A stretch of 57,780 bases of DNA from Alloascoidea hylecoeti (lineage: Eukaryota): contig BCKZ01000008.1 in assembly GCA_001600815.1 (NCBI GenBank), positions 1,023,885 to 1,081,664 on the forward strand. Reading direction: 5' to 3'. Numbering within the stretch: the stretch's first letter is position 1; the number at the start of each line of letters is the position of its first letter. A model generated the notes under the pieces. It worked only from the letters and a program-made list of their open reading frames with translations, searched no databases and was not told the origin of the DNA. Made by a program: the position numbers and the translations under genes. Of this stretch, positions 7,497 to 56,571 are shown piece after piece.

Positions 7497-9113
7497 TTAA
7501 ACATTTAACGGCAGATCTTCAATGTGTTCTATGCTGCTCTTCCGTTCTGCCATCTTTTCATTAATAAAATCAATTTGATCTTGCGTAGCAGCATCTCCAA
7601 AAACGTGTGCAACCTCTTCTAAACTATATCCTCTTGTTTCTGGGAACAGAAAATATGCGACAACTATTTCAAAAGCTAAAAAACAAGTCCATACAATGTA
7701 ATACCTCCATTCAATAGCATCCATTGCAATTGGATTAATAAATCCATTAAATACTGAGGTTAGTTGATTCATTGAAAAGAAAATTAGAACCCCTTTAGAT
7801 CTAAGATTATATGGCAAGCATTCTGTAAGATATAGATATGGTAATCCACAAAGCCCAATATCATAGGCAGCATAATATAAGAAGATCATAGCAAGTACAC
7901 CATTAGCCAAAGATTTGTCTTTGAAGTCTCTTTGTTGGTTTATTGCAGAAAGAGCAGTCCAAACAATGTAACAACACATCATCGAAGACAAACAAGTTAA
8001 AAACATTCTTCTCCTATTAACTTTGCTTACAAAAGTAATCGCAACCCAAGCAATAATCATGTTATATAACATCAAAATAGCATTTATAATTAATTGTTTT
8101 TTACTTGAAGTTATACCAATTGATATTAATACTTTGACTAAGTAATAACTGACTAGTGAATTTCCGGAGAATTGCATCATAATAGGAACAGTAAATGCAA
8201 TCAAAAATCTATGAAAATTAGCTTTGGTTTGAAAAAATGTCTTGAATTTGGCTTGTTTTTGTAACTTTTCTATTTCAATTGCTTGTTTTATTTCGCCTAG
8301 TTCAAACTCTATAAGTGCAAGAGATTGTTCTGATTGATCATTACCAGTATGGTACTCCATCAAAACCTTTTTTGCATCAGCGATTCTTCCTTGAGCAACA
8401 TAATAACGAGGAGATTCAGGGATTAAATGAGTAAAGAGAAGCTGAATGAGGCATGGTAATCCTTGTATTAATGATGGGATTCTCCAAGCCCAAGATGAGC
8501 TATGCATGAAGTAAGTACCAAATGTCACCCATGCTGCTATAGTCGCACCCAAGTACCATAAAGTATTAAACAAGGCTGTCATTATTTCACGTTGCCTTGG
8601 ATGAGCAGTTTCTGAAATAAGAGTCGGACTTCCAACACCGGAGGTACAAGCTCCAGCACCAATAACAAGTCTACCAACTAAGAAGCATGCATATCCATTA
8701 GCTGCTGTCTGTATTATGACTCCAATTAGCATTAGGCTAGCACCAACATATATACAGATCTTTCTACCATATTTATCAGATAACCATGGTGAAAACCAAC
8801 AAGTAAATATAAAACCAAGAACAAGCCCGTTTGCTAAAGCTCCCAGAACCGCACCTGTTGGATCACCCATAGTATGCATGAATACTGTCAAAGATTGTAA
8901 ACCATTCAACAAAGAACCATCATAACCCGAAGTAGCAGACGTAAGCATGGGGATAGAAAGAGCACAGTTAAGTCTTAAAAGGTGCTTATATTTATACCAA
9001 GGTTTTTCCAAAGGGGTTAAGAGGTCTTTGAAAGCTTTGTCTTTTTGAAGCACCGCAGCTTTGTTATCATTATTAGTTTTAGGATCATTTGAAGACCCGT
9101 TTTCGGAACTCAT
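7497..9113 (-). CDS. MFS sugar porter, Lac12/cellodextrin-transporter-like
   Basis: GYDGSLLNGLQ, SDKYGRK, ISETAHPRQR, WRIPSLIQ, IPESPRY, QFSGNSLVSYY and PETRGYSLEE; 12-TM hydrophobic pattern. Confidence 0.92.
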   Translation of the reverse strand: MSSENGSSNDPKTNNDNKAAVLQKDKAFKDLLTPLEKPWYKYKHLLRLNCALSIPMLTSATSGYDGSLLNGLQSLTVFMHTMGDPTGAVLGALANGLVLGFIFTCWFSPWLSDKYGRKICIYVGASLMLIGVIIQTAANGYACFLVGRLVIGAGACTSGVGSPTLISETAHPRQREIMTALFNTLWYLGATIAAWVTFGTYFMHSSSWAWRIPSLIQGLPCLIQLLFTHLIPESPRYYVAQGRIADAKKVLMEYHTGNDQSEQSLALIEFELGEIKQAIEIEKLQKQAKFKTFFQTKANFHRFLIAFTVPIMMQFSGNSLVSYYLVKVLISIGITSSKKQLIINAILMLYNMIIAWVAITFVSKVNRRRMFLTCLSSMMCCYIVWTALSAINQQRDFKDKSLANGVLAMIFLYYAAYDIGLCGLPYLYLTECLPYNLRSKGVLIFFSMNQLTSVFNGFINPIAMDAIEWRYYIVWTCFLAFEIVVAYFLFPETRGYSLEEVAHVFGDAATQDQIDFINEKMAERKSSIEHIEDLPLNV

Positions 9114-11418: not shown

Positions 11419-12366
11419 AGTTATTTCTAAAGTTTTATGTAGGCTCTACATATTTCACAGTACGCTCATTAATATATTTGTTATCTATCCCTTCCTATAA
11501 GTTATACATTTGAGACTGTGTGCGATAACAGAAAAAAGCTATAAAGCGATTTACATACATTTATAGTGTAGGTAATATTTAGTCTTGGGTAGTTATCTGA
11601 AAAGGAGTTGCTTTTGTTTCACGTAACGAATTCACTTCACACTCTCGCAATGTACTACGTAAAGTTTTCAAAAATATAAGATCCTGATAAGTTAATTGAC
11701 CTTGCACTTCCCAAGCTTCAAGTAAGTATTACAACAAGTATTGCTAATTATTGTACATTAAAATCTATATAAATCATGCTTATATAACAATAAGATTAAG
11801 AATGAAATTTTAAATATCAATTGCAATGAAGTAAAGTGATTGCCCCCAAACCCAACCCTCTCTATCTTTATATAATAAATTTTCAAGCCCACATATCCTT
11901 CTTAACCATCACATAAAACAATAAAATATAACCCTAACTGCGAAATATCACCTCCAAAATCGAAAACAGGGAGTTGTTTCATTAAAAATGGTGATTTGTG
12001 CTCGTATGATTTGTACAATATGAAGAACAAAATAATGAGGCGATTTAGGGTCTTCCGCTTTTTGAGAAGTGATAAAATCGAGTGTTGAATAATATAATAT
12101 TTGTCGGTATATGAAATAAATTAAAGGGATTACCTGTGAACCGATGTAGATACTAGAAAACAAAATATACAAAAATAGATACCAGCGATGTATCCTTTAC
12201 TCCAACGAAGAAAATATTAATTAAGCCAGTTGCAAAAACATAAAAAGAATTAACACGATCGTGACCATAATCATGAAAATGGTTGATGAAAATTCCATGA
12301 ATTTACAAACCCCAGAATAACATAAAATGTGATAATAAAATGACGAATAATTACGGTTATGAAGCT

Positions 12367-12933
12367 TCATATCAACAGCTCATCAATTAAATCTGAACTG
12401 AGATAATCATCACCATTTAAATCTTTCAATGGAGATAACCAATTTTGCTCCTGTATTTTAGTCTCTAATATCCTTAATGCTTGTGATAATTCATCCACTT
12501 TTTCCTGCATCTTTTTGGGAGAAATCACACTAATGATCTTAATTTCTGTTTTTGAATAATTATTACTCCAAATAGTAGCACAATTAGCCACCTTTCCATA
12601 CATTGTCCTTCGTTTTTTCAAGATTTCCTTCGTCGCCAAAGCTTCAGTAATAGAAAGCTTCATTATCTCATCTCTACCTGGGGCATTTGTTGTCGGTGCA
12701 GCCAAGGAATTACTTTCAATTCCAATAAAGGTTTTTGAATTTGTTAAGTTAATACAAGCACTAAGAAACCTAAGTTGTTGAGAAAGAGATTCATATGTTT
12801 GAATTAATTCATTTATATCATATTGGGGTTCATCACCTTCCTGAACCTTACATACTTCCCTAATACGATTGTTGTAACTCTGAAGTCTTTTATCAATATC
12901 AGACTTTAGCTTTAAAGCTTCGGCTAAAAGCAT
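12367..12933 (-). CDS. DIP1984-family (bacterial-type) coiled-coil protein, 188 aa
   Basis: First ATG is at 12933. MLLAEAL, KVQEGDEP, INLTN, YSKTEIKIIS and LETKIQEQNW match the bacterial pattern MKLAEAL..VQEG..P..IN.TN..YSRSEIK..LD..IQ..NW. Confidence 0.8.
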   Translation of the reverse strand: MLLAEALKLKSDIDKRLQSYNNRIREVCKVQEGDEPQYDINELIQTYESLSQQLRFLSACINLTNSKTFIGIESNSLAAPTTNAPGRDEIMKLSITEALATKEILKKRRTMYGKVANCATIWSNNYSKTEIKIISVISPKKMQEKVDELSQALRILETKIQEQNWLSPLKDLNGDDYLSSDLIDELLI

Positions 12934-13415
12934 GTGTAACCAACCTGAATTATTATGAAGCTGAGATATTTGCAACGAAGATGTATTTGGACTTGTTACA
13001 AATTGCTTGCAGATTTGTCTCCTTTTAAATCAAACGAATATTACATTTGACCATTAAAAAATACAAAATGATTAATTTCGACTCATAAATCACAAATATT
13101 TAAAATTTTCTAAAAATCAGTAGTTCTCCAAACAATTTGAATGTGGGTCGAACGCTGGGGTTATGCTTTAAATAATTGATTACTAAAGATGTTTATTTTC
13201 CGAATGTCTCCGACTATGCTATCCGAAGGCAAATAGGTACAAAATTTACCCCACAATCCTAAAAACCACAGCTATGGGCAAATTGGTAATAAAATTTGCC
13301 TATATATGATTATAATCTAACTTTATTGTTTTGTCTTTAAAAAACGATATTTTAATGCAAAATCCCTAATATCAAACTTCCATATCAATTCGTATACCTA
13401 ATAGAAAGCGCTGCA

Positions 13416-14430
13416 ATGACAAACTGACAATGTTCAACCATGCTTGTTTAGATGCAAATAATCAATGAGAAAAATATTCCAGAAAATGGGTAGATAAATA
13501 TTTCAATTCGGTTTCTAGAATAAACAATTTGAAAGCAGAACTACCTCAATTGATTAAAAAAATGGATGCTTCTGTTATTCTTGTACTGGGAGCAATACAT
13601 CTATAAATAGTAAATCAAATATTATAAGAGGTAACTCTGGTAAATAATCAACTTCAAACTCTATTGTTGATACTTCAATACTATCACAATTAACTCGACC
13701 TACTGAAAAATCTGGTGTAATTCTCCAAATGTGTAATAGAAAGTGGAAGTTACTTCATCACCATCAACAACCATTATCATCAAGTTCTCAATTATCAACT
13801 CATAATCATGATAGTTCTAGTAGTAATAAAAATTTTAATACTAAAATTATTAAAAAAGAATTTTACCCGAGTAATGAAATATTAAATGAAGTGAGGAGCA
13901 ATTTATTAAAAATATATCTCAAATATTGACATTGAAAGAATTTTGTTTACTAAAAAATAAAGCTGGAAAGATATTTAACTTGGTAAAGTTCACCAATCGA
14001 GGAGAAAGCGATGGCACACAAAAGGAAGTGCATTTTTATTAGTGGGTAAGTGCTAACACTAATTTACTCATTTACTCAAAAAACATAATTGCCACATGTG
14101 GTATAGGTCAATTAGTATAATTAGAAAAAGATGAAAGAAGAAGATAAAATATACTAATAAATATTTGGTCTTTCAGCGTTAAAATTAGCTCCATTATCTC
14201 TACATTATTATTACGTTTAAAAAGTTATTCGTCATTACAGTTACAACTGGTTTAGTTTCCAATGATAAACTTAAATTAGATGAGACAGTAACTTTGTGAT
14301 TAACATTGTAATTAATGTTTAATTACAATTCAATGTTATCTGGTTTCATTGGTTTCATTTGTTTCACAGATGCACCGAAAGAAGATGTTGAAAAAGTAAT
14401 AAATTAAGCTAAAGAAGATAAGATTTTGTA
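13416..14430 (+). pseudogene. Highly decayed cofactor-dependent phosphoglycerate mutase (Gpm1/2/3-like)
   Basis: Collinear fragments in shifting frames: KLTMFNH (~KLVLVRH), NEKNI..WVD (~NEKNLFTGWVD), SQLTRPTEK (~SKLSRAIQT), PLSSSSQLS (~PIDASSPFS), YPSNEILNEV (~LPETESLALV), QLV*LEKMKEED (~LVKHLEGISDAD), TGL..KLDE (~TGIPLVFELDE). Many stops. Confidence 0.5.
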
Positions 14431-15760
14431 GCTGAAAAAATTCATTCTTGTGAAGTTATGAAAATGATTGCAATTAGAGTAATGATATTTTAATAAAAAG
14501 AACGGAAGGGAAAATATTATCGATATTTCTATATATTTCCATCATTATTTTGATATTAGATATATATAACAGTAAGTAAATCCCAATTTATTTTTAATTT
14601 GTTTAATTTAGCTCGGTACAGTATCATAGTCATAGAAGCATATGCATATGTATTCAAAGTATTGACTCAAAGTTCCATTTAATATAATTGTATATGCCCA
14701 TATTACATTCTTTCTATGATTTACATCAATTAATAAATAATTCATATAGAATTCATCTTCGTGAAAAGTGATAACAAGTGATTACAAGTAATTGGTTTAA
14801 TATCAGTGCCTTTTGAAATTCAAAGTGGTAATGGGTTTGAGTTTCATTATTAATTTTTGAAATTGAAATGGGGTCTATTCATATCACAATATGTTCTTGT
14901 ACATCTTTATTTATTTAAAATTTTGGTTGAACTGTATTTATGAGATGTTCCTTCAGTATCAGCGGTGGTATATTTAAAATCAATCTATGTGTAGAATTAT
15001 TTCTTCCAAATGCCACATTTTTATAGGATTTGTTGTTAGAGGTTACATTCATAGTTATAAGTTTATGCTTGGAGTATGCATGCCTAGTAATTTAAAAATT
15101 CAGAAAGTTCATCGCGATCGGTGCCCTTCTTACCCATATATATGCGTAATCATTTAGATTTACTGTCAAACGGGTTATAATGAGTCACACACTTTATACT
15201 TTACAGTTGGTCAATAAGCAAAATGGGATTGATAGATTTTTGCTTTTAATAATTTTCTACGTATATATGCATATAAGTAATATTTTTACATTGGGTGATT
15301 ATTACCCCATAACAATCTACCATATCATGTGATAATCATCCTTATAACTAAGTTATATAAAGTATAAGATCCTATATATACCCTACATTAAATATATAGT
15401 AAGTTGTAACATTATAAAGTACATATATTGACAAAACACAGCTGCCAGAACTCCCAGGTTATTCTTATAATTACGTACTATCGTTGAAAACTAAAACTTG
15501 TTGGCAAAACCAAAACTGTAAAGATTTTCGAATTCTAGTCAATACATTTCTGCTATAGTTGATATTTAACATTTATTACAAGAGGACCCAAAATCAATCT
15601 TACCACCACCACTCTAACTTACTCATTCGCATACATTAATAATCAGATTTATATATAATTACAAAACAAAAAGCCCTCTTCGAATATCAAAGCAAAAACA
15701 TTTAAATCAAAACATGAACAACAAATATATAAGGATACAAAACATATTACTTATATATAA

Positions 15761-17308
15761 CTATAAAGTATATCTGAATTCTTTGTTTTCCATATCTGTT
15801 AAATCAGCGAAAGCTTGTTTCATTTCATGACCATAATATCCCTCACCCGTCATATCACGACGTCTATTCTCTCTCCAATTCAATAAGTACATAGCTGGAA
15901 AACACAGTAAACAAACAGCATAGCATGCCATAACTCCAACTTTTGCGGACACATAATCGGGCGCTTCTTTGTCTCGAAATGTTTGTGGCCCTACCATATT
16001 GCCAACAGCGTATCCAATTAAGTAAACTGCATTCACAGTCACCTTCTTTGTATGTCCAGCAACATTCGAAGATACAAGTGCGAACATAATCATCATTGCA
16101 ACAGGCGCAACAACTAATATATAATAACCAGCAAGTTCAACGTGGACATTTTCGGAAAATGCCAACATAGATGATCCAATTAAAGAAATCGCAATCGCAA
16201 GCCCACCGGTCAACATTCTTTCGTCTATTTTATGGCAGAAATAACCGAAAAATAGAACGCCCACAAATTCAACAGCACCAGAAGGCATGTTCATTAACAA
16301 AGTTTTTAGAGTGGAGTATCCCATTGATTCGTGAATAAGAATTGATGCAAAGTTACTAATAGCTCCATTAGGTATATTTAATGAGACAGCAGAAACAAAC
16401 ATAATCCACGTCCTGGGATCTATGAAGGCCTCTTTAAATTGATATAATTTAAATGTCCTATTACCGACACCTTGCTGATTAGCTCTTAACCTTTTCACTA
16501 CGAGTTTCTTTTCATCATAGTTCAAAAACTTGGCTTGCAATGGTGAATCTGGAATCACAATTAACACAGCACATGCAAAAATAATAGTTAGAATACCGAG
16601 AAGGATAAATAATACCTTCCATGCCTCGACTTTAATCTTATCTTCATTATATGCAAGCGCATACCCAATAGAGCAAGCTATAATCTTACCAAAACCATTA
16701 GAAGATACCCAGAAAGATGTTCTCAACGTCTGTTCCTCTCTTCTATACCACTGAGATGTTAGAAGTACAAATGCTGGACTAATACCAGACTCTAACATTC
16801 CCAGCAATGTTCTACAGGCAATAAAACCAGCATAATTGCAGAAAGCAGTGCAAATCAAAATTATACCCCATAATACTAAAAAAACAGTGATTGTTTTTGC
16901 AACTGGGAACCTTTGAAGAATAAAGCAAGCAGGAAGAGAGAAGATAAAATACCCAAGATAAAATGAGGTACCAGCCCATGAATACATATTTCCTTTCATC
17001 CCTAAATCAGTTCGAAGACCCATAATTGCAGCATACGAGGAAGCTGTTTTGTCCATAAATTGGATAGCATAAACAAGGCACATCATCGGACATAAGATCA
17101 AATCTGTCTTTAACACTAGTTTTTTTTCTTCAACAGGGTCGATTTCTTCATCGTCATCCATTGACAGATAATATGCTGGGTCGAATCCTGTCATCGATAC
17201 TGATTGAGAAGCTGTATCATCATTGTTGGTAGCATTATGATGTCCCATCTCTATTATACTTGAGGTTTCTTGTTCATTGTACCATGAACTATCTTTTCGT
17301 ACTAGCAT
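15761..17308 (-). CDS. MFS anion:cation symporter, Dal5-like allantoate/dipeptide permease
   Basis: QFMDKT, RTLLGMLES, SQWYRREEQ, PDSP..AKFL, NVAGHTKK, GNMVGPQTF, ENRRRD and FADLTDMENKEFRY. Confidence 0.92.
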   Translation of the reverse strand: MLVRKDSSWYNEQETSSIIEMGHHNATNNDDTASQSVSMTGFDPAYYLSMDDDEEIDPVEEKKLVLKTDLILCPMMCLVYAIQFMDKTASSYAAIMGLRTDLGMKGNMYSWAGTSFYLGYFIFSLPACFILQRFPVAKTITVFLVLWGIILICTAFCNYAGFIACRTLLGMLESGISPAFVLLTSQWYRREEQTLRTSFWVSSNGFGKIIACSIGYALAYNEDKIKVEAWKVLFILLGILTIIFACAVLIVIPDSPLQAKFLNYDEKKLVVKRLRANQQGVGNRTFKLYQFKEAFIDPRTWIMFVSAVSLNIPNGAISNFASILIHESMGYSTLKTLLMNMPSGAVEFVGVLFFGYFCHKIDERMLTGGLAIAISLIGSSMLAFSENVHVELAGYYILVVAPVAMMIMFALVSSNVAGHTKKVTVNAVYLIGYAVGNMVGPQTFRDKEAPDYVSAKVGVMACYAVCLLCFPAMYLLNWRENRRRDMTGEGYYGHEMKQAFADLTDMENKEFRYTL

Positions 17309-24644: not shown

Positions 24645-25415
24645 TTATTGCAAATTGACAAACATTCCACCATCTACTAAGATTTGTGCACCAGTGACAT
24701 ACTTGGATAAATCAGAGGCCAAAAAAATAGCAGGACCAGAAAGATCATCTGCAATACCTAATCTGCCTAAAGGAGTTCTGCTAATCATGTAATTTCTCTT
24801 CTTTTGATCGCTTAGGTCTTCCTTATTAATATTTGTTTCAATTGTTCCTGGGAGAAGAGCATTCGCTCTGATTCCATACTTTCCCATAGCGCAGGCGGTT
24901 GACTGCATAAGAGATAGAATACCAGCTTTTGTTGGAGTATAATGACATTGTTCAGCACCACCTACCAGTGCTGAAATACTTGAAACACCAATAATACTTC
25001 CGCCTTTTCCTTGTTTCTTCATTTGTCTAGCGGCTGCCTGGGTTGTATACCAACAACCATCCAAGTTTGTAGCTCTAGTTCGTTGATAAACTTCAATTGG
25101 CATCTCTGTAAATTCAGAAAATGGGCAAATACCTGCATTTGACACAAATACATTTATTTCACCAAATTTCTTAACTGTTTCATCAATAAGATGGGGTCCA
25201 GTCTCTGGGAGAGCAATATCGCCAGAAACTGCTAAAAAGTTATCAGCACCTATAAGTTTTGTCATTTCTTCAACAATTTTATCATTAGAAGAGCTTGCCC
25301 TATGATTAATTGCAACCTTGGCACCTTCTTTGGCCATATCAATTGCAATGGCATAGCCAATTCCATGAGTAGCACCAGTAATAGCAACAATCTTTCCTTC
25401 GAGTAATCCAACCAT
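24645..25415 (-). CDS. LRA1: L-rhamnose 1-dehydrogenase (SDR)
   Basis: Close match to Scheffersomyces Rha1/Lra1 motifs: GEINVFVSNAG, KQGKGGSIIGVSSISALVGG, HYTPTKAGILSLMQSTAC and C-terminal VDGGMFVNLQ. Confidence 0.92.
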   Translation of the reverse strand: MVGLLEGKIVAITGATHGIGYAIAIDMAKEGAKVAINHRASSSNDKIVEEMTKLIGADNFLAVSGDIALPETGPHLIDETVKKFGEINVFVSNAGICPFSEFTEMPIEVYQRTRATNLDGCWYTTQAAARQMKKQGKGGSIIGVSSISALVGGAEQCHYTPTKAGILSLMQSTACAMGKYGIRANALLPGTIETNINKEDLSDQKKRNYMISRTPLGRLGIADDLSGPAIFLASDLSKYVTGAQILVDGGMFVNLQ

Positions 25416-34097: not shown

Positions 34098-37000
34098 ATG
34101 GATTCCTTATTTATTCAAGATAATGATAATGATGATGTTTCCTGTAGTGAGGGAAATAAAGTAGCAGGAGAGGTTGGAAAGTCTGCAACTCCCTTCCTTG
34201 AAGTAGAAAAAGACTCGGTACAAGATTTAGCTATATCGAAATCAAATACAGATGTAGGTGATGATATTTTAGAACCATTGTTTATTATGGATCATGATGA
34301 AAATAAACAGGAAGATGCAAAAGAAGAAGAGGAATTGGAGCTATCGGAACCTGTTCATGTTAGTTTAAACCTTCCTTTACGGTATCAACAACAAATTACA
34401 CAGGAATTATTAAAAGAAGATGGTCTTTTATTATTAGCTCGGGGTCTGGGTATAAATAAAATCGTTGCTAATGCTCTTCATGCTTTAAGTACACCTGCTA
34501 TTTTTCATAAAAAGAATCATAATGACAATAATAATAAGACAAATCTATCATTTTTTGAAATAAAGAAAAAGAGTCTAATTCTCTTATTGAATGCAAAAGA
34601 TGATGAAACAGAATATATTTCTTCTATATTAAATGAATTATCATGGATTGATAATCTTTATGATCCAGATTTATCATTTGATGAATTAGATACAACAGAA
34701 AATTTAAAACCTTATCGAAAACCACATTTTAGAGTATTAAAAGGTGATTCTCCAACAATTGCTCAAAGATCAAAATATTACAATGAAGGTGGTATAATAT
34801 CTATTACATCTCGAGTTTTAATCGTTGATATGTTATCACATATAATTGATATAAATACAATAACTGGTATATTTATAGTTCGCGCGGAAAATGTATCAAT
34901 TAATTCAAATGAATCTTTTATTTTAAAATTATTTAGAGAAACTAATAAATGGGGTTTTATAAAAGCCGTTTCTGAAGAAATTGAAAGGTTTTCAAGAGGT
35001 TTTGATCCTTTAACAAAAAAATTAAAACTATTAAAAGTTAATAAAGTATTTTTATGGCCAAGATTTCATATTGAAGTTACAAATTCATTATATAATATTA
35101 ACAATAGTAACAACAACAATAAAAAAGATTCTTCTGCTAATTCAACCTCAGTTATTGAAATTAATGTTGAATTAACTGATCTAATGAAAGAAATTCAAAC
35201 TGCTATATTACAATGTATTGAAGCATCTATATCGGAATTGAAGAAATTAAATCAATCATTAAATATAGATATGGAAGATTGGAACGTTGATAATTTCTTA
35301 AATGATAATTTTATTCAAATGATTAGAACTCAATTAGACCCACAATGGCATAGAATTTCATCATCATCAAAACAATTAGTTACTGATTTATCAACATTAA
35401 GATATTTATTAAATGATTTACCAACTGATAATTGTATTTCGTTTTATAGATCAATTCAAAATATGATTGATGAAGCAAAAGAAAAGAAAAAATCAACTAA
35501 TGATTTACCTTCATTATTTTTATTAGATGCTTTTTCAACATTAGTTTCAAAATCAAGAGATAGAGTTTATACTTTAAAAAATAATATTAAAAGAATTAAT
35601 GAAGGTGATGTTGAAATCAATACTAAAAAGCAAAATATTAAAAATGTAATTAATGATGATAGAATTGTTGCTGTTTTAGAAGAACAACCAAAATGGGAAC
35701 AATTGGCTTTTATACTAGATGAAATTGCAAGTGAACAAGAAAGACAACCTCAATCAATTTCTAATAATTTAGGACCTATATTAATCATGTGTTCAAGCCA
35801 TTATGTTTCAAAAGATATTCAGTTTTTCTTATCAACAATGAAAGAAGATAATACCTTGAAGTCGGAAATTAATGGATTACAAGGGAAACATTATTTTTCT
35901 TCAAAAATGATGGTCAATAAATTAAAGCAATACTTCAAATGGAGGCAATCAATGTCGAAAGCAACTCCACATTTCAGAAAACCAGTAGATCCTTCATCAT
36001 TGCCCTCATCATCTGGAAATGTTACCCATACAGGTGAACACTCAAGATCTGCTAACGATTCATCATCAGCAAATCCTCCATCTAATAGCAATAATAGAGA
36101 TATATTATTGAGGAATACAAGACGTCCATTTTATAATAAACGACGGAGAACTCGGGGTGGTTCCACTGCCGTGTCTTCTTCTGATAGAGCGCAACTACTT
36201 ACTGAAAATATTTCAAAGGAAGACAAAGATATTGAATTTCTACTAGAAATAACAAACGAATTGCCATCTGAAGAAGAAGAAGATGATGATGATAATGAAG
36301 ATGATGTAGTTGAATTGTCTGACACCAATGAGGATATTGAAGTTGATAAAGAATCACCAATTTTCCGAAATTCTGATCGGAATAATCAAATAATAGTAAA
36401 GCCCTATAATATTGAATTAGATGATTCATTTTTAGAAGAAATAATGCCATCATACATCATTATGTTTGAACCAAACACTGCATTTATTAGAAGAGTTGAA
36501 GTTTATCAATCGATCTATAATAATATCTACTCAAAAACTTATTTTATGTATTATGGAAATTCAACAGAAGAACAAAAATATTTAACTTCAGTTCGAAGAG
36601 AAAAAGACTCATTTACAAGATTAATTAAGGAAAAGGCAACAATACCATTAGATTTCACAACTGAAGATGATTCATCAATTAAATTCCGCCGGTCCAGAAA
36701 TATTAATACAAGAATTGCTGGTGGTAGTGGTAGTATTAGTAATAATAAATCATTGGTGATTGTTGATACCCGTGAATTTTCATCCTCATTACCATCGTTA
36801 ATTTATTCTGCTGGAATGACAGTTGTTCCATGTATGTTGACAGTTGGTGATTATATAATTTCACCGAAGATTTGTATTGAAAGAAAATCAGTTAGCGATC
36901 TGATTGGAAGTTTTAAAGATGGTAGATTATATTCACAATGTTTATCAATGCAAAGACATTATGAAATCCCAACTTTATTAATTGAATTTGATGAAACGAA

Positions 37001-37679: not shown

Positions 37680-40478
37680 CTAATCTAAAAGAAATTCTAA
37701 TAATAAATTAAATGTAGTTGAAACAACCCAAATTCCAACAAGAATCGACCCAGCTCTTTTATCCAACATCCATTTATTCCAAGGAACATAAATTAAATAA
37801 AATATCATCGTAAACACTAAAGTACCTGCAGAAATACGTAAACTTCTTTCCACCTCAATTTTAATTGATCCGTTAAAATTACCAATTGCATTCGGTTGTT
37901 GTAGTAGAGTGAGTAAACCACTTAGGCCGATACCAACTAAAATGTTTAACATTGGCCCACCAAAACAAGCACCAAGCGCCATTATTGGGAAACCTAATTT
38001 CGCAAACGTTATATCAGATATCAAATCTCCAAGACTATTACCAAAGGCAAATACTGTTATTCCAAGTACAGCTTCTGATAAATTAAGTATAATTCCTGCT
38101 GACTTTAATAATCCAACAACTTCATTTGCAATTTGATAGACCCAACATAAACTACAAAGAAATCCTAATAAATTCGATAATAGGGGATCATTTGATTTAT
38201 TTTTGTAGATCATTAAATAAAAGCAAATGGCAAATAATGTCATACCAATAACAGCAGCAAGACTTATAATGGGTATAAAGTAAGTATTATCCCAAAATAT
38301 TGTAGAGATAAATATTGGACACATAAAACAATGAACTAATTGTAACCATCCGGATTTAGCTAAATCTACAGCTTTGTCTTTTTTCGAATCTGCATTTTCT
38401 TCTTCTGATGGATCATAAACTGGTATAGTTATTGTAAGTATAAAGATAATTGGGGCCTGAAATAATGATATCAGTTTGCTATACCATGGTTGTAACTTAA
38501 AATCAATAAGAGTTGGGAATATTGTTGAAAAAATATTAGCGAATCGTTTCGAAAAATCATTTTCTAATTGAGTTTGAACATCAGCTAATGTATCTCGGCG
38601 CCCAAATATATTATTGTCCATTGGACTTGTCTCAGCATCTTCCATTATTAGTTCAATTGAAGCAGCTGGCGATACTGGTTCAGAATCAAGATTTGTATTA
38701 ATCTTAGGAAGTTTCAAAGGTGAATCTGTAGATGTATCATCGCTTGTACGACTCGTAGCACTTGAACTACTAAATGTTGGAACAGATAAAAATGTATCCA
38801 TGGTATGTGCGGCTGGTTCAACTTCAGATATTTTTGTAATATTTCTTGTATTCTCCTGAGAATTATTTTGAAAATTATTCATTATAGCCTCTGTATCCAT
38901 CGCAATTGATCCATCAAGTGATGCAGCTCTTTTAAAATTATTAGCAGATCGAGATGAATTATGATCAATTACCCTTTCCATTTCAGATAAATGAATGACA
39001 GAATTCGCTCTAGCCCTGAAATCAGTCAACCTTAATAAAGCAGGCGTTGAAGGGCTTAATAATGAATTACCATGCATTGATCTTTCTTGAGCTTGCCGTT
39101 TTTTCCTTTCTGATTTTGTCTTATTATAGATCGATAACAATTTAACAGCATCATAAACCGATAATTTTAAATCTATTGGATATAAACTGCTCCTTCTCTC
39201 TCTTCGGGGTCCACTAATACTAGCTCGATGTAATTTTAATTGTGAAGAAAATTCTCGAAATGCTTCCATTTCTGACTTTAGTTGTGAGCGGTGACGATTG
39301 CCAGTGCTTCTTTTACTGTAAACTGAACTGGCAGGGCTTAAAGACGCTCCGGGCCCCGGGCTAATCAGATTATCATTAATATTACTTGTAGAAAATGATG
39401 GCATATTAGATAAATTGTAAGGTCTTAAAGATAGATTATCCGATGACTGCCTTGGTGAAATATCTATATGTATCCTTGAATCAATTGATAAGTGATCAAC
39501 ACTTTCATCATCATTATCATCTGGTTCCGCATTTTCTTTTCTATTCATCCAAGTAACAGTAGAAACATAAGTGATATACGTCACTAACATTACAGTTGAA
39601 TCTAGTGGTGACAGTTCACCATCACCGACAATAAACAAAACAATTGTTACAACAAATAAGAAAAAGGAGACATCCCTAATAAACTCCTGTTCCGAAACTT
39701 TAAATGGATTAACGATGCTCATCATACCAACAACCATTGTTGTCACAAATGAAGCAGCACCCAGTAGTTCACCGATGGCTAACGAGCCGCTGTTATTTTT
39801 CATGGCAATATAAGTACTGAAGATATCAGGCGAACCGTTTCCAAAGGCTAAAAGTGTCAAGCCAGCTACATTTTCAGAAAGTCCACAAATATTGGCTAAG
39901 CTACTAAGATTAGGACATAGAAAATCAGCAGCTGCTAATCCGATAGTTGTAAATAAAGTAATTAAAACAATTCCCATGAAAAGTAAAGAAACCGATTTAT
40001 TTGAATAATTTTCACAGTAATATACTGAAAGATAATCAATTACACCAGATTGGCTATCAGCACAATGTCCATTTATAAACCCACATAAAAGTGAATTATT
40101 CTGTGTTGTAAGCTCATATTTATGGATATCTTTACACTCTAGCAATTCTAGATTTAGATTTAAAGAATTGTTGAAAGAAAAAGTAGAGTTTGATAAAGAT
40201 GCATTTAAACTTTTATCAGCCACAGACGCGCCTGTCGGAATTAAAGATGTGCTTGTATTTGAACTGGTAAGATTCCCAAGACCTGCGAAAGTTATATTTA
40301 AGTCTTTATTGATTTCCAATTCATTATCAGCCTTATTATTAAAAGAGCTATTAATGGTACTTGTGGGTTTCGAAAATATGGCCAATATAAATACAACGAT
40401 TAGTCCTAGAACAAAAATGAGCGTAAGTTTTGGCCTCCTGAACGACCATTGTCTAACATTCAAAAATAACCACCTCAT
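37680..40478 (-). CDS. CaCA-family cation/Ca2+ exchanger (Ecm27/YDL206W/NCLX-like)
   Basis: Alpha-1 GLTLLAFGNGSPD and alpha-2 GITVFAFGNSLGD..ACFGGPMLN repeats with a large central loop. First ATG is 40478 (40481 is GTG). Confidence 0.93.
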   Translation of the reverse strand: MRWLFLNVRQWSFRRPKLTLIFVLGLIVVFILAIFSKPTSTINSSFNNKADNELEINKDLNITFAGLGNLTSSNTSTSLIPTGASVADKSLNASLSNSTFSFNNSLNLNLELLECKDIHKYELTTQNNSLLCGFINGHCADSQSGVIDYLSVYYCENYSNKSVSLLFMGIVLITLFTTIGLAAADFLCPNLSSLANICGLSENVAGLTLLAFGNGSPDIFSTYIAMKNNSGSLAIGELLGAASFVTTMVVGMMSIVNPFKVSEQEFIRDVSFFLFVVTIVLFIVGDGELSPLDSTVMLVTYITYVSTVTWMNRKENAEPDDNDDESVDHLSIDSRIHIDISPRQSSDNLSLRPYNLSNMPSFSTSNINDNLISPGPGASLSPASSVYSKRSTGNRHRSQLKSEMEAFREFSSQLKLHRASISGPRRERRSSLYPIDLKLSVYDAVKLLSIYNKTKSERKKRQAQERSMHGNSLLSPSTPALLRLTDFRARANSVIHLSEMERVIDHNSSRSANNFKRAASLDGSIAMDTEAIMNNFQNNSQENTRNITKISEVEPAAHTMDTFLSVPTFSSSSATSRTSDDTSTDSPLKLPKINTNLDSEPVSPAASIELIMEDAETSPMDNNIFGRRDTLADVQTQLENDFSKRFANIFSTIFPTLIDFKLQPWYSKLISLFQAPIIFILTITIPVYDPSEEENADSKKDKAVDLAKSGWLQLVHCFMCPIFISTIFWDNTYFIPIISLAAVIGMTLFAICFYLMIYKNKSNDPLLSNLLGFLCSLCWVYQIANEVVGLLKSAGIILNLSEAVLGITVFAFGNSLGDLISDITFAKLGFPIMALGACFGGPMLNILVGIGLSGLLTLLQQPNAIGNFNGSIKIEVERSLRISAGTLVFTMIFYLIYVPWNKWMLDKRAGSILVGIWVVSTTFNLLLEFLLD

Positions 40479-45130: not shown

Positions 45131-47158
45131 CTAATCACTTAAATCAGGATTAGCAACAAATAGTCTTAAGCCACCTCCTTCATTTTCAAGGCTACTATTA
45201 TTACTATTTGATCTGTCCCTTGCTATTTCTCGATTGTCAGTAGATGAAATACTTTCCAAATCTTGATTATTCAAATCATCCACTTCCCCTGATACATTAA
45301 TACTAGTTCCAGATGCAGAAATATTATTAGTGATTGAGTCATCAGCTTCAGGTTTTGTCTGTTGTCTATATAATGATACAAATTCAGATTCATCATCATC
45401 TACTTCACTTGCTAATAATCTGGGTTGTAATTTAGCATGTCTAGTATCCATTTTAGTTAAATTACCCGAAAATGATTGATGAAATAATCTGTTTTTCCTT
45501 GAAGCCATTGATGATGTATGAGCATGAGTATGTACCCTTCTTCCACCTTTTACTTTTGTTAAACTAATTGGTAATGGCCAATTTGGTGGTTGAATTTCTG
45601 AATATGAAGTACCTGCTTTTTTACGTATTAATTGAATATATGTTGATGGTTGTCCTTTACCAAGTATCTTAGGTGTAGATGGTTTTTCTGATTTTGTCTT
45701 TGATTGTGGTCGTGATCGTGATTGTTTTGAATATAATGATGATCTATCAATAGATATATTATCATTTGGTGGTGGTTTCCTTCTTGTTGATAACGGTGAT
45801 CTTTCTCGTTTTATAGATGAAATTCTATGAAAACTTGTACTATTATCAAGTTCTGTTGGTTCATATGGTGTTATACTTTCTGATGATTGTCTTGAACTTA
45901 TATTTGTAATTGATGAAGAGTTTATATTGTCTTTGTTATAAATAGGAAATGAAAATGAATCCGTTGGATGATTATTAGTTTGATTATGCGATGGAGTATC
46001 ATCATTAAAATGAGATGGTAACAAAGAGGAAGAGTTTGTACCATTAACATCAATATTAGCATTATCATTACTATTATAACCTTGGTCAAATTTATTAATA
46101 TCATTAGATACTTTTAATGGTTCCCATTGATTTTCATAATGTGTTGGTTTAGTAAACCCATAACTATCCCCACTTTCATAACTAACCACAGAATTTGAAT
46201 GATTATGTTCATTCTCATCATTAAAGCTATGAACTCCTAGTGTATTGTCGGGTATATCCGATACACTCGGGTTAGACGAATACATAATTGCAGAATCACT
46301 TGTTAAAACCCGATGGTGTAAAATTGAAGGAGAAACTTTAAGATGATCATGACCATTTTCATGGAATTGATTAGAATATGATGAAGAATGAGAAAAAGGC
46401 CTTTCCAATAAATTATCAATTTGAATATTTATTGAATCAATATCAACATTGTCGGAATCTAGTGTATAATTATGATCCTGAATATGTGATGGTTTGTAAG
46501 ATGAATCAGGTGAAACGTTCTGAATTACCGATGGGGATATTGAGGATTGTCTTCCTTTATCTCTAGATGAAGTAGATGATATCATAGATTCAGGACTCCT
46601 GCTCTCACTCTTTATTTGATTTCGAGTACTATTCTCAGGTTCTATTTTAGGAACATCCTGAACTCGGTTATTATAATCACTAGGAGGGGGTTTTCTTCGT
46701 GGTGGTGGTTTCCGTTTAGGGATCGTGGACATCGGATGTAACCTATCTTTCGAAAGACTTGGTGTAGATTGCAATTCGCTTTGTTTTATACTGGAATGCA
46801 TTGAAATAGGAGTTGTCGAGTAAACACTTGAAGATAAAGAAACCGAAGAAAGATCACTTGCAGTACTCGTATTTGATCTTATTGTATCTGTTCTTACAGT
46901 AATCGTTGGATTGTTTTTGAATGAATTTTCAGTGATGGTTTTATTTCTATCGCGTCCTGGATAATAGTCGGCTTGTGGTTGACCATTGTTTAGTCCTGCA
47001 TTGTTGGTATTAGATAATCTTGGGATTTGCCTGTTTTGTCCTATTTCGGAATGGAAACCGAGATTTGAAGCGGTTGATTTAATATTAAGACCATTCAATG
47101 TCGATTTATTGCGTTTGTCTGATGGCTTTGATGTTGAAGTTGTAAATAATTTATTCAT
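45131..47158 (-). CDS. Ser/Asn-rich, likely disordered protein with RKPPP motifs and C-terminal LxVxNPD
   Basis: 675-codon ORF with no TM segment; three (K/R)RKPPP motifs, LQPRLLASEV and terminal LRLFVANPDLSD. Confidence 0.8.
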   Translation of the reverse strand: MNKLFTTSTSKPSDKRNKSTLNGLNIKSTASNLGFHSEIGQNRQIPRLSNTNNAGLNNGQPQADYYPGRDRNKTITENSFKNNPTITVRTDTIRSNTSTASDLSSVSLSSSVYSTTPISMHSSIKQSELQSTPSLSKDRLHPMSTIPKRKPPPRRKPPPSDYNNRVQDVPKIEPENSTRNQIKSESRSPESMISSTSSRDKGRQSSISPSVIQNVSPDSSYKPSHIQDHNYTLDSDNVDIDSINIQIDNLLERPFSHSSSYSNQFHENGHDHLKVSPSILHHRVLTSDSAIMYSSNPSVSDIPDNTLGVHSFNDENEHNHSNSVVSYESGDSYGFTKPTHYENQWEPLKVSNDINKFDQGYNSNDNANIDVNGTNSSSLLPSHFNDDTPSHNQTNNHPTDSFSFPIYNKDNINSSSITNISSRQSSESITPYEPTELDNSTSFHRISSIKRERSPLSTRRKPPPNDNISIDRSSLYSKQSRSRPQSKTKSEKPSTPKILGKGQPSTYIQLIRKKAGTSYSEIQPPNWPLPISLTKVKGGRRVHTHAHTSSMASRKNRLFHQSFSGNLTKMDTRHAKLQPRLLASEVDDDESEFVSLYRQQTKPEADDSITNNISASGTSINVSGEVDDLNNQDLESISSTDNREIARDRSNSNNSSLENEGGGLRLFVANPDLSD

Positions 47159-53971: not shown

Positions 53972-54754
53972 ATGGCTAGTATAACGTCTATATTTGATTT
54001 GACTGGGAAAGTAGCCTTATTCACAGGTTCCTCTAGAGGAATTGGTGCTGCAATGGCTTTAGCTCTTGCTAGAGCTGGTGCCGATATGATTTTAGTTCAA
54101 AGATCCCAAGCTAAAACAGATACCTATGAAAAAATTAAAGCATTAGGTAGAAAAGTTTTCATTGTCAATGCCGAATTGAGTAACAGAGAGCAAGTATCGG
54201 AAATTGTTCCAAAAGCAATTGAGTTATCACCAACTGGACAAATTGATATTCTCGTTAATAATGCAGGAGTTGCAAGAAATGCAGAACTCTCAGAATATCC
54301 TTTAAAATATTGGGATGAATCTCTTGAAGTTAATCTTACCACACCTTTTATTTTATCAAAAGCTGTTGGTACTCATCAAATTGAAAAAGGTATTAAAGGT
54401 AAAATTATAAATGTTGGATCTNTTTGGGGAATAGCTGGTGGGCTTCAAGNNGTTGGATATGCAGCTGCAAAAGCAGCATTAATTCACATTACAAAATCGA
54501 TTTCAAATGAATGGGCAGGTAAAGGAATCAATGTTAATTGTATTGCACCTGGACTTATTGAGACTGATATGAGTGCACCATTAATTACTGGTGAAATGAA
54601 AGATCTTGGTGCTGCTATTACAGCAACAACACCAAAGGGTAGAGTTGGACATCCAGAAGATTTTGATGGGATTGTTTTATTCTTAGCAAGTGGTGCCTGT
54701 GATTTTGTTACGGGATCGACTATTGTTGTTGATGGTGGTAAGATTTATGTGTAA
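53972..54754 (+). CDS. SDR, KduD/gluconate 5-dehydrogenase-like, copy 1 (260 aa)
   Basis: FDLTGKVALFTGSSRGIG, LVNNAG, YAAAK, SNEWAGKGINVNCIAPG and VDGG. First ATG is 53972; N bases at 54422 and 54450-54451. Confidence 0.88.
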   Translation: MASITSIFDLTGKVALFTGSSRGIGAAMALALARAGADMILVQRSQAKTDTYEKIKALGRKVFIVNAELSNREQVSEIVPKAIELSPTGQIDILVNNAGVARNAELSEYPLKYWDESLEVNLTTPFILSKAVGTHQIEKGIKGKIINVGSXWGIAGGLQXVGYAAAKAALIHITKSISNEWAGKGINVNCIAPGLIETDMSAPLITGEMKDLGAAITATTPKGRVGHPEDFDGIVLFLASGACDFVTGSTIVVDGGKIYV

Positions 54755-55788: not shown

Positions 55789-56571
55789 ATGGCTAGTATA
55801 ACGTCTATATTTGATTTAACTGGGAAAGTAGCCTTATTCACAGGTTCCTCTAGAGGAATTGGTGCTGCAATGGCTTTAGCTCTTGCTAGAGCTGGTGCCG
55901 ATATGATTTTAGTTCAAAGATCCCAAGCTAAAACAGATACCTATGAAAAAATTAAAGCATTAGGTAGAAAAGTTTTCATTGTCAATGCCGAATTGAGTAA
56001 CAGAGAGCAAGTATCGGAAATTGTTCCAAAAGCAATTGAGTTATCACCAACTGGACAAATTGATATTCTCGTTAATAATGCAGGAGTTGCAAGAAATGCA
56101 GAACTCTCAGAATATCCTTTAAAATATTGGGATGAATCTCTTGAAGTTAATCTTACCACACCTTTTATTTTATCAAAAGCTGTTGGTACTCATCAAATTG
56201 AAAAAGGTATTAAAGGTAAAATTATAAATGTTGGATCTATTTGGGGAATAGCTGGTGGGCTTCAAGCAGTTGGATATGCAGCTGCAAAAGCAGCATTAAT
56301 TCACATTACAAAATCGATTTCAAATGAATGGGCAGGTAAAGGAATCAATGTTAATTGTATTGCACCTGGACTTATTGAGACTGATATGAGTGCACCATTA
56401 ATTACTGGTGAAATGAAAGACATTGGTGCTGCTATTACAGCAACAACACCAAAGGGTAGAGTTGGACAACCAGAAGATTTTGATGGGATTGTTTTATTCT
56501 TAGCAAGTGGTGCCTGTGATTTTGTTACGGGATCGACTATTGCTGTTGATGGTGGTAAGATTTATATGTAA
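55789..56571 (+). CDS. SDR, KduD/gluconate 5-dehydrogenase-like, copy 2 (260 aa)
   Basis: Near-identical to copy 1. Visible differences: DLG/DIG, GHP/GQP, TIVV/TIAV, IYV/IYM. Confidence 0.9.
   Translation: MASITSIFDLTGKVALFTGSSRGIGAAMALALARAGADMILVQRSQAKTDTYEKIKALGRKVFIVNAELSNREQVSEIVPKAIELSPTGQIDILVNNAGVARNAELSEYPLKYWDESLEVNLTTPFILSKAVGTHQIEKGIKGKIINVGSIWGIAGGLQAVGYAAAKAALIHITKSISNEWAGKGINVNCIAPGLIETDMSAPLITGEMKDIGAAITATTPKGRVGQPEDFDGIVLFLASGACDFVTGSTIAVDGGKIYM

Follow-up and report, generated by a model that had tools for sequence, protein, structure and literature searches.

An intact DIP1984/DUF6847 gene of a yeast-specific clade, probably of ancient bacterial origin, in an AT-rich ascomycete yeast

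DIP1984 of Corynebacterium diphtheriae, whose structure is solved (PDB 3kdq), represents a large protein family with no known function, and a misleading toxin label, 'septicolysin', has spread through the yeast and Acinetobacter literature on it. On OXA-24 plasmids of Acinetobacter baumannii, a gene once called 'septicolysin' today bears the annotation DIP1984 family protein (PMC3358182, PMC10889530); the two names would appear to denote one Acinetobacter gene, which is bacterial and plasmid-borne and has the family label in common with the gene described below. Septicolysin-like genes of Malassezia are reported as bacteria-to-fungus transfers of variable copy number (Ianiri et al. 2020, bioRxiv 10.1101/2020.01.28.923367; PMC7426719; PMC12239588); they are likened to the yeast gene by database label only, and their hosts are Basidiomycota. 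Acinetobacter and Malassezia papers repeat the label and state that the role is unknown (PMC3358182, PMC7426719). Budding-yeast homologues are annotated as PGUG_03586 (Meyerozyma guilliermondii), DEHA2F27258p (Debaryomyces hansenii) and CANTADRAFT_329243 (Suhomyces tanzawaensis), and further genes are found in Scheffersomyces stipitis, Diutina catenulata, Hyphopichia burtonii, [Candida] anglica and Saccharomycopsis crataegensis. Among the papers searched, none names DIP1984, septicolysin or DUF6847 in Saccharomycotina, or the yeast locus tags; supplements of large yeast horizontal-transfer surveys may list these genes. To the transfer visible in these public annotations, the window (the whole 57,780-nt stretch of DNA that we analysed) adds a divergent subgroup, with a longer loop and an acidic tail, from a poorly sampled yeast.

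The preliminary description of this DNA had linked the family to bacteria, and it is indeed overwhelmingly bacterial: 534 of 590 pattern matches on bacterial contigs (one genome per species) encode a family protein, at least six phyla are represented among 78 proteins taken from the 80 best loci, and an exhaustive search returned 785 cluster representatives at E≤0.001. A metagenome scan with an alignment of the window's subgroup recovered six loci, all bacterial-type, at 26–29% identity and on contigs of 48–50% GC. No conserved operon partner emerged when the nearest ORFs of at least 80 aa on each side of 25 loci were compared (50 proteins, no family in more than two loci); PhdYeFM, GNAT, esterase, FMN_red and YcaO/OsmC neighbours occurred at two loci each, and 24 of the 50 had no Pfam family. 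PADLOC assigned 0 families to seven family proteins. The bacterial genes are followed by a conserved, covarying structured RNA of ∼200 nt, for which a search of Rfam gave no match. Downstream flanks matched one another by blastn in 1590 of 2775 pairs, compared with 62 of 2701 pairs of upstream flanks, and compensatory changes were present in 27 of 28 predicted base pairs of the RNA. Motifs delimit this RNA in 64 of 78 bacterial loci, a model of its 3' half finds 33 of 35 held-out loci, and most copies contain a tRNA-like GGTTCGAATCC arm. Because the gene is almost always followed by this RNA, the bacterial protein probably works with it.

The yeast gene and the features around it are collected in Table 1. 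The ORF is intronless and uninterrupted, as first described; the stop-to-stop frame around it spans 220 aa, and the initiator methionine of the bacterial proteins aligns with its first ATG. A host-like AT content had also been claimed, and both the GC (0.33) and the GC3 (0.265) of the ORF fall within the span of 17 neighboring ORFs (GC 0.23–0.385, GC3 0.05–0.37).

Table 1. Features of the locus, in window coordinates.
Feature	Position	Strand	Remarks
Sugar transporter, flanking host gene	7497..9113	minus	PF00083, 287.9 bits
Unexplained G-tract GAGGGTTGGGTTTGGGGG	11836..11860	minus	507 nt downstream of the stop codon, same strand; similar to the motif at the 3' end of the bacterial RNA
Intact DIP1984/DUF6847 gene	12367..12933	minus	188 aa, ATG to TGA, stop codon counted in
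Acidic C-terminal tail LKDLNGDDY...ELLI	12370..12438 (codons 166–188)	minus	Short predicted helix 181–186 (AF2 model)
Lineage-specific insertion, helix2–helix3 linker	12661..12717 (codons 73–91)	minus	Flanked by two short predicted strands
Upstream non-coding region, presumed promoter	12934..13400	minus	11-nt insertion/deletion polymorphism at 13152
MFS transporter, flanking host gene	15761..17308	minus	PF07690, 146.3 bits

Membership in the DIP1984-like family, proposed originally from motifs, was confirmed by profile, motif and fold comparisons alike. Both family profiles were matched over essentially their whole length as a single domain of ∼150 aa: NF038048 (NCBIfam) at 135.3 bits against a cut-off of 70 (residues 3–166 on profile positions 2–146 of 149), and PF20935 (DUF6847, Pfam) at 124.5 bits against a cut-off of 27 (residues 10–166 on positions 1–138 of 141). 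The core motifs of the family (MKLAEAL, QEGxxP, INxTN, SxEIK and RxLDxxIQxxNW) all have their counterparts, in the order reported, as MLLAEAL (1–7), VQEGDEP (30–36), INLTN (61–65), YSKTEIK (126–132) and L156xxxIQxxNW165. Among 119 bacterial rows, 29 columns are at least 85% conserved, and the window protein is identical in 23. In the six that differ, K10, K102, E103 and E157 are conservative replacements, and Y38 and N125 are not, so that the bacterial-conserved E38 and R125 are lost. The sequence itself matched PDB 3kdq at E 2.6e-17. An AF2 model (pLDDT 91.3, pTM 0.82) is all-helical with a four-helix fold, and when this predicted model was compared with 3kdq, Foldseek gave E 1e-8 with a TM score of 0.72–0.74 by query and 0.88–0.90 by target, while VIA gave Z 14.4 and an rmsd of 1.7 over 151 residues, where the level named for helical bundles is about Z 13. 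Past 3kdq, both fold searches found only generic helical hairpins (Foldseek next E 0.11, VIA next Z 8.7), and the ESM Atlas returned bacterial DIP1984/'putative Septicolysin' clusters only, along with one phage cluster at 0.90. The product is predicted to be a soluble, acidic, four-helix protein (pI 5.4, GRAVY −0.41). Modeling also predicts a symmetric homodimer formed via helices 2 and 3 together with the two conserved loops, QEGDEP and SxEIK: the dimer scored 0.63, compared with 0.00 for the best of three controls, with runs agreeing in at least 92% of contacts and a partner pLDDT of at least 81. Of 30 proteins solved as pairs, 21 attain the same mark, as do 0 of 23 solved as single chains. 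Because 3kdq holds four chains, this pass may reflect memory on the part of the predictor.

What distinguishes the window protein from DIP1984 itself, apart from its eukaryotic host and the two lost residues, lies in the linker, in the tail and downstream of the gene, where no partner RNA was detected. The preliminary description had noted an insertion of ∼15–20 aa and a short acidic tail, and both are present. The linker between N65 and A98 has 32 residues (bacterial median 13, range 7–27, n=119) and exceeds both this median and the DIP1984 linker by 19 aa, corresponding to ESNSLAAPTTNAPGRDEIM, residues 73–91; the AF2 model places strands at 69–73 and 90–94, with lower pLDDT (67–84) in between. 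The 23-aa tail contains six acidic residues and one basic residue. It is common to P0002, P0208, P0218 and P0060 and absent from the remaining yeast or bacterial rows, and the three relatives with which the window protein groups have both its insertion site and its acidic tail.

A maximum-likelihood tree of 65 rows (IQ-TREE; unrooted, with Malassezia genes left out, about one-quarter of the database proteins named and the bacterial side an open comb) placed 28 yeast-type rows and 37 bacterial rows on opposite sides of one branch with support of 100/98, and grouped the window protein with P0002 and P0218 at 100/99. For only 10 of the 28 yeast-type rows is there a named yeast record, either their own or one in their cluster; apart from the window, the remaining 17 were placed by clade and features. 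In a larger FastTree analysis of 315 rows, a set of 43 rows with support of 96 contained all 10 named yeast rows. The named members belong to Debaryomyces, Meyerozyma, Scheffersomyces, Suhomyces, Diutina, Hyphopichia, [Candida] anglica and Saccharomycopsis, every one a member of the Saccharomycotina, with a patchy distribution. Shared characters point to the same clade: R8 occurs in 26 of 28 yeast rows and 0 of 119 bacterial rows, C28 in 21 of 28 and 2 of 119, a linker of at least 18 aa is found in all 28 yeast-type rows, and the clade has lost the bacterial-conserved arginine at the site of residue 125 of the window protein. The annotated yeast homologues have the long linker, and most have C28, R8 and Y13; they differ from the window protein in their 30–44% identity, in lacking the LKDLNGDDY tail and in their linker sequences. 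The window's yeast also seems to read CTG as leucine (three of four CTG codons of one gene fall in Leu/Ile-dominated columns), unlike the yeasts of the annotated homologues, which belong to CUG-Ser lineages. It has no close named relative: a search with the Na/Ca exchanger gave nothing above 33% identity across most of that protein's length.

We therefore read this ORF, with a probability of roughly 0.75, as a real nuclear gene, present in one copy, of an ascomycete yeast that is AT-rich and poor in introns, and as a member of a yeast-specific DIP1984/DUF6847 clade derived from one ancient bacterial transfer. The tree, together with shared derived characters, shows the clade; the direction of transfer would be from bacteria to yeast. 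Most likely, a single ancient transfer into budding yeasts founded the clade, and duplication, many losses and perhaps yeast-to-yeast spread would have followed. The bacteria-to-yeast transfer that had been proposed would be an old and shared one, not private to this lineage, since the window protein nests in a yeast-only clade. Broad occurrence in fungi, which had been named in advance as speaking against a transfer, was seen in part: several yeasts share the gene, but its distribution is patchy, its named carriers are all Saccharomycotina, and its tree is not simply vertical. Because the bacterial rows form an open comb in the tree, we name no donor.

Two other histories have to be set against that one. 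A separate, direct bacterial transfer into the window lineage alone would fit the word-index matches, the best of which outside the small subgroup are bacterial-type proteins of 150–167 aa at no more than 37% identity, and the donor side of the tree lacks resolution; but the window protein is grouped with 27 other yeast-type rows, has the long linker and C28 in common with them, and in the exhaustive search the next-best matches after its own subgroup include the yeast-type P0062, P0063 and P0064 at 41–43% identity, which makes a private event very unlikely. The patchiness itself may have arisen through secondary transfers of a 'yeast-adapted' gene between yeasts, and not through vertical descent and losses, a reading that we regard as a real but minority possibility. 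The gene tree departs from taxonomy: the Debaryomycetaceae are split between its two major subclades (Debaryomyces, Scheffersomyces, Diutina and Hyphopichia apart from Meyerozyma, Suhomyces and [Candida] anglica), and Saccharomycopsis, of the Ascoideales, sits inside a set of Serinales. Copy number varies (several accessions in [Candida] anglica, two in Saccharomycopsis), and the apparent difference in CTG decoding between the window's yeast and the named members, presumably CUG-Ser, points the same way. Old duplication with differential loss would give an equal pattern, however, 17 of the 28 rows have no species label, and a repeat scan and Pfam searches of the flank fragments found no mobile-element signature at the locus.

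That the ORF is an assembly chimera or a bacterial contaminant is extremely improbable. The one observation in its favor is that all three Logan assemblies break at 11816–11870, a 55-nt segment ∼500 nt from the ORF where k-mer depth is about twofold; a short repeat lies at the break, and depth is unchanged across it. Read depth over the ORF equaled that of the left flank in assemblies from three studies, all of which may be the source of the window DNA itself (59.4 versus 57.7 in X1, 9.41 versus 10 in X3, 9.86 versus 8.0 in X4). Single contigs of 13,093 nt (X1) and 6,100 nt (X3), covering 11841–16500, join the ORF to the 3' part of the MFS gene (15761–16500). In these runs the ORF is physically linked to host genes, and its depth and composition resemble those of the host. 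Fungal genes lie elsewhere in the window (MIS13, ERCC4, ribosomal L1, FLILHELTA and TLC), and the protein bears the characters of the yeast clade. Contamination is unlikely because of these fungal neighbors, the host-like GC and the flank-equal read depth. Scans for bacterial promoters, terminators and repeats around the ORF returned nothing above chance. The surroundings had been called decayed sequence, a view that we could not uphold: the 3.2-kb and 2.8-kb flanks contain no ORF of at least 100 aa, eight ORF fragments from them had no Pfam match at E≤0.01, and no pseudogene came to light; they have the look of extended intergenic sequence rich in AT. The isolation of the gene in a 6.6-kb stretch free of other ORFs of at least 100 aa would nonetheless suit a non-functional ORF, intact by chance and heading to decay, as would the state of its near relatives, of which two of the three closest look split or truncated in some assemblies: P0060 is a 99-aa C-terminal call only, and P0070 and P0217 are two parts of a call that is split on a single contig, with P0218 as an intact form of that protein. 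Some lineages may thus be under weaker constraint. Against decay stand 188 open codons in 30%-GC DNA, a start and an end that align with the family, the conserved columns and the conservative nature of most changes in them, the confident AF2 model and the full length of subgroup proteins at 49–53% identity, and we consider it unlikely. The intact ORF and these columns are also what remains of the proposal that the gene is kept by selection, which they favor indirectly.

Cholesterol-dependent cytolysins are secreted, beta-rich proteins of ∼500 aa with a thiol-activated cytolysin domain. The window protein has none of these features, and the identity that the septicolysin label implies, a pore-forming toxin that is secreted or inserts into membranes, is highly improbable. 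Databases and literature attach that label, and UniProt names yeast members 'Septicolysin'; but DUF6847 is the only Pfam family above cut-off, the modeled protein is all-helical, 3kdq is its sole convincing structural match, and its hydropathy peaks at 0.84 over 19 residues with no hydrophobic N terminus or segment. The membrane-active role raised in the preliminary description found no support in these values. The Meyerozyma homologue was found in a soluble proteome, and the Debaryomyces cluster, made up of clade members and not of the window gene, includes a transcript record.

The yeast gene shares its protein family with the bacterial loci, but the RNA that directly follows the bacterial gene went undetected in the window: two half-length models located no such RNA directly 3' on the same strand. 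The 3'-half covariance model gave a best E of 3.6 in the window with nothing near the ORF, the 5' covariance model a best E of 0.72, at 35404, and nhmmer with the RNA only a G-tract piece at E 1.1; the folding z-score was −0.12. A copy may lie at some other place in the genome, or have diverged past what the two half-length models detect. The G-tract lies in the 55-nt segment where the three assemblies break, and a pattern set a priori, GGGYGGGNNNGGGG, with at most one mismatch, matched once compared with an expected 0.02.

We tentatively propose that the yeast protein acts in the cytosol as a stress-responsive dimer with a binding or scaffold role, not as a pore-former; it would have kept the family core and lost its coupling to the bacterial RNA, and its lineage-specific loop and its acidic tail would mediate contacts specific to the host. 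The stress element comes from one proteomics table and scattered bacterial neighbors. That the clade has kept the gene through deep splits among budding yeasts speaks for a useful role of the protein on its own in a eukaryotic cytosol. We hold it doubtful, though worth stating, that the yeast protein is the domesticated protein half of a widespread but undescribed bacterial RNA–protein module, which has lost its cis RNA and binds host RNA (tRNA or T-arm RNA) or acts RNA-free; were this so, the G-tract would be the last remnant of a co-transferred RNA, and the genetically tractable Debaryomyces, Meyerozyma and Scheffersomyces would offer a clean system for studying the function of the family. 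The yeast members present a natural separation-of-function case: a conserved structured RNA accompanies the bacterial genes, and none was detected beside the yeast gene of this window.

Two smaller observations concern sequence records of the locus. A metatranscriptome (X8) matched in two pieces of ∼20 nt only, both from one 154-nt contig, which has no bearing on expression. In the presumed promoter region, the contigs of X3 and X4, and not that of X1, have 11 additional letters behind position 13152.

The preliminary description placed the yeast ORF in the DIP1984-like family from its motifs, all of which we found in the predicted protein and in the listed order. Profile searches bore out the assignment: the protein scored 135.3 bits against NF038048 (NCBIfam DIP1984 family; cut-off 70; profile positions 2-146 of 149) and 124.5 bits against PF20935 (Pfam DUF6847; cut-off 27), and it carries the conserved residue at 23 of the 29 columns whose conservation among 119 bacterial rows is ≥85%. 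The frame is uninterrupted, as had been described; from stop to stop it spans 220 aa, and M1 of the bacterial proteins aligns with its first ATG. Also as described, there is an insertion, of ∼19 aa (the N65-A98 linker has 32 residues; in 119 bacterial rows its median length is 13 and its range 7-27), and an acidic C-terminal tail (residues 166-188). Composition is host-like, with GC 0.33 and GC3 0.265 inside the spread of 17 adjacent ORFs. We found no support for the claim that the gene lies among decayed sequence: its flanks have no long ORFs, and a Pfam scan of eight flank fragments gave no matches. The small hydrophobic ORF that overlaps its stop codon has no Pfam match and is probably a chance product of AT-rich DNA.

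Features of the window and of the bacterial loci (L numbers) that carry a DIP1984 gene
Feature	Position	Strand	Details
55-nt piece	11816-11870		
G-tract GAGGGTTGGGTTTGGGGG	11836-11860	(-)	507 nt downstream of the DIP1984 ORF, same strand, in 30%-GC DNA
Small hydrophobic ORF	12221-12370	(-)	49 aa; its ATG overlaps the DIP1984 TGA stop (ATGA)
DIP1984 ORF	12367..12933	(-)	188 aa, ATG to TGA, no interruption
Insertion/deletion	13152		11 nt; 219 nt upstream of the DIP1984 start codon
Third short-chain dehydrogenase (SDR)	24645-25415		
Na/Ca exchanger	37680-40478	(-)	932 aa
ORF	45131-47158	(-)	675 aa
SDR, tandem copy	53972-54754	(+)	260 aa
SDR, tandem copy	55789-56571	(+)	260 aa
Bacterial partner RNA	∼+5 to +255 nt past the stop		L001-L080; e.g. 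L016:4464-4685, L003:4461-4669
tRNA gene array	L013:7-1760		16 tRNA genes; Acidobacteriota
tRNA gene array	L016:43-2640		23 tRNA genes; Acidobacteriota

By sequence, the sole solved relative is 3kdq (E 2.6e-17), a Corynebacterium diphtheriae protein annotated as a functionally unknown conserved protein. An AlphaFold2 model built from a 147-row alignment (pLDDT 91.3, pTM 0.82) has four long helices (3-27, 40-67, 95-119, and 139-166), two short strands flanking the insertion, and a short helix at the C terminus. This predicted model superposed on 3kdq with TM 0.72-0.74 by query and 0.88-0.90 by target; VIA gave the pair a Z of 14.4 (rmsd 1.7 over 151 residues), and its next row, at Z 8.7, was generic for helical proteins.

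The gene sits among fungal genes, including Mis12-Mtw1/MIS13, ERCC4, ribosomal L1, FLILHELTA, a TLC-domain protein, and sugar/MFS transporters. We placed read-run assemblies from three studies (X1, X3, and X4), one of them a wood-decay metagenome, on the window; they contain 98-100% of the words sampled from 8 kb surrounding the ORF, although the three are not fully independent because each was flagged as a possible source of the window. Physical linkage to yeast genes was confirmed with the same caveat, as single contigs of 13,093 nt (X1) and 6,100 nt (X3) run from 11841 across the DIP1984 ORF into an MFS gene at equal depth (ORF versus flank, 59.4 versus 57.7 in X1 and 9.41 versus 10 in X3; 9.86 versus 8.0 in X4). 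The ORF is identical in all three assemblies, and X1 differs from X3 and X4 by the insertion/deletion upstream. All three break at the 55-nt piece, whose k-mer depth is approximately doubled and which is therefore a short repeat; the organism does not change at this break. The exchanger has no close relative (among its best 120 matches, none exceeds 33% identity over most of its length), so the organism seems to come from a poorly sampled, fast-evolving lineage. Three of the four CTG codons in the exchanger gene fall in Leu/Ile-dominated columns, and this yeast therefore probably reads CTG as Leu, a reading that touches only codon 186 of the DIP1984 ORF. Elsewhere in the window, the tandem SDR copies have near-equal Pfam scores and are a recent duplication, and the 675-aa ORF matched no Pfam family at E ≤ 0.01.

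Homologues proved not to be confined to this yeast. A word-index search found P0002 (187 aa, 49% identical), the remaining matches being proteins of 103-167 aa at ≤37% identity. An exhaustive search of 1.84 billion representatives returned 785 proteins at E ≤ 0.001, of which three reached E ≤ 1e-30: the window's own protein, P0002, and P0060, a 99-aa fragment that shares 70% identity with residues 95-187. Several further matches have long linkers and a Cys ahead of VQEGDEP. Through cluster look-ups and a profile search, we named homologues in Suhomyces tanzawaensis, Meyerozyma guilliermondii (PGUG_03586, UniProt name "Septicolysin"), Meyerozyma sp. JA9, Saccharomycopsis crataegensis (two genes), Scheffersomyces stipitis, Debaryomyces tyrocola, D. 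hansenii (DEHA2F27258p), D. fabryi, Diutina catenulata, Hyphopichia burtonii, and [Candida] anglica (several accessions). NCBI taxonomy puts the three Debaryomycetaceae species checked in Serinales and Saccharomycopsis in Ascoideales. One protein labelled Naganishia cerealis (Basidiomycota; P0211) shares the 90%-identity cluster of the M. guilliermondii protein (P0064), and it looks like the product of a contaminated or mislabelled assembly rather than a basidiomycete homologue.

The preliminary description proposed an old bacteria-to-yeast transfer, a reading that holds for the kind of event but not for its scope: the probable transfer is ancient and common to several yeasts, not private to this one. 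In a FastTree analysis of 315 rows (326 minus 11 outside 140-230 aa), a 43-row set with support 96 included all 10 named yeast rows. An unrooted IQ-TREE (LG+C20+F+G4) of 65 rows, comprising 28 yeast-type proteins, 15 from named bacterial loci (78 thinned to <62% identity), and 22 further bacterial proteins, parted all 28 yeast-type rows from the bacterial ones (100/98). At the level of sequence, the derived characters agree with the tree: R8 occurs in 26/28 yeast versus 0/119 bacterial rows, and C28 in 21/28 versus 2/119; every one of the 28 yeast rows has a linker of ≥18 aa, and only two of them keep the bacterial R at position 125 of the window protein. Debaryomycetaceae fall in both subclades of the yeast clade, which points to a history of early duplication, of transfer from yeast to yeast, or of the two combined. 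The bacterial rows form a comb that singles out no donor. Direction from bacteria to yeast is inferred, the tree being unrooted, because the family is wide in bacteria (534 of 590 pattern matches on one-genome-per-species contigs encode it) and its RNA linkage, described below, is general there. The 78 proteins from the best 80 loci include Acidobacteriota (25), Cyanobacteriota (22), Chloroflexota (15), Bacillota (9), Pseudomonadota (5), and Planctomycetota (1).

Within the yeast clade, the window protein groups with P0002 and P0218 (100/99). Its subgroup (P0002/P0208, 187 aa; P0218, 181 aa; and P0060; 49-70% identity) has in common the insertion position (IE.NNS..P) and the tail LKD(L/I)NGDDY...LLI. 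P0060 covers only the C-terminal half, and the P0218 gene, intact in another assembly, was called on one NCBI contig as two pieces (P0217, 51 aa; P0070, 115 aa); these may reflect pseudogenisation in some strains or an assembly or gene-calling artefact. Bacterial transfer of a "septicolysin-like" gene into Malassezia has been published (bioRxiv 10.1101/2020.01.28.923367; PMC7426719; PMC12239588), and the likeness of that gene to the budding-yeast clade is one of database label. For Saccharomycotina, the literature library that we searched holds no paper describing the family or naming the genes. Yeast DIP1984 genes have long been present in public annotations, so the window adds a divergent new member, in a lineage-specific subgroup, to a known type of event.

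The most interesting by-product was the difference between RNA-linked bacterial genes and an RNA-less yeast gene. The 320 nt downstream of bacterial DIP1984 genes gave blastn matches in 1590 of 2775 locus pairs, versus 62 of 2701 for upstream flanks, and they hold a structured RNA, 189-255 nt long and conserved across at least five phyla, that follows the gene directly. In a 48-element alignment, with lengths of 189-235 nt, 27 of 28 predicted pairs have compensatory changes. Conserved blocks include GGTAGCC, GAAGCGAGCAC, and a CCAAC/GTTGG hairpin; most copies have a tRNA-like (T-arm-like) GGTTCGAATCC arm, and the 3' end is G-rich (GGTGAGGGTGGGTnnGGGG). None of 14 loci matched Rfam at the gathering score, nor did one element at E ≤ 1. 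When we searched 35 held-out bacterial loci with a covariance model of the 3' half, 33 gave the element immediately 3' of the gene and on its strand; both missed loci have <225 nt of flank.

In the window, half-length covariance models gave best E values of 3.6 and 0.72 with no match near the ORF, nhmmer aligned the G-tract alone (11860-11823, E 1.1), and the 537 nt downstream of the ORF folded no better than shuffles (z -0.12). Within the window, therefore, the yeast gene has no detectable cis partner RNA, and a copy may lie at another place in the genome. The G-tract matches the bacterial 3' motif (one match versus 0.02 expected) and sits in the 55-nt piece, which has further copies in the genome and is the site of the three assembly breaks; it could be an RNA remnant, a telomere-like repeat, or chance.

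The label "septicolysin", or cholesterol-dependent cytolysin, is unsupported: DUF6847 was the only Pfam family above cut-off in this small, all-helical, acidic protein. Its pI is 5.4 and it has no hydrophobic segment, and the Acinetobacter paper through which the label became popular gives the role as unknown (PMC3358182). Multimer modelling predicted a homodimer (0.63 versus a best control of 0.00 among three), with runs agreeing in ≥92% of contacts and a partner pLDDT of ≥81; this mark was reached by 21/30 proteins solved as pairs and 0/23 solved as single chains, and the predictor may have reached it by memorisation of 3kdq, which holds four chains. The predicted interface is formed by helices 2 and 3 together with the conserved loops at 27-36 and 131-137. 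A transcript record in the Debaryomyces cluster hints that yeast clade members are expressed, and a proteomics table hints at a possible link to stress. The yeast protein might, tentatively, be a cytosolic, dimeric, stress-responsive binding protein uncoupled from the ancestral RNA. Bacterial neighbourhoods held no conserved protein partner and PADLOC made no finds; an RNA-related function is a testable lead. In two loci the tRNA gene arrays directly precede the DIP1984 gene, and neighbours elsewhere include RtcB (L029), an RNA ligase (L022), and a tRNA U5-methyltransferase (L066); the bacterial genes may have an RNA-repair or tRNA context.
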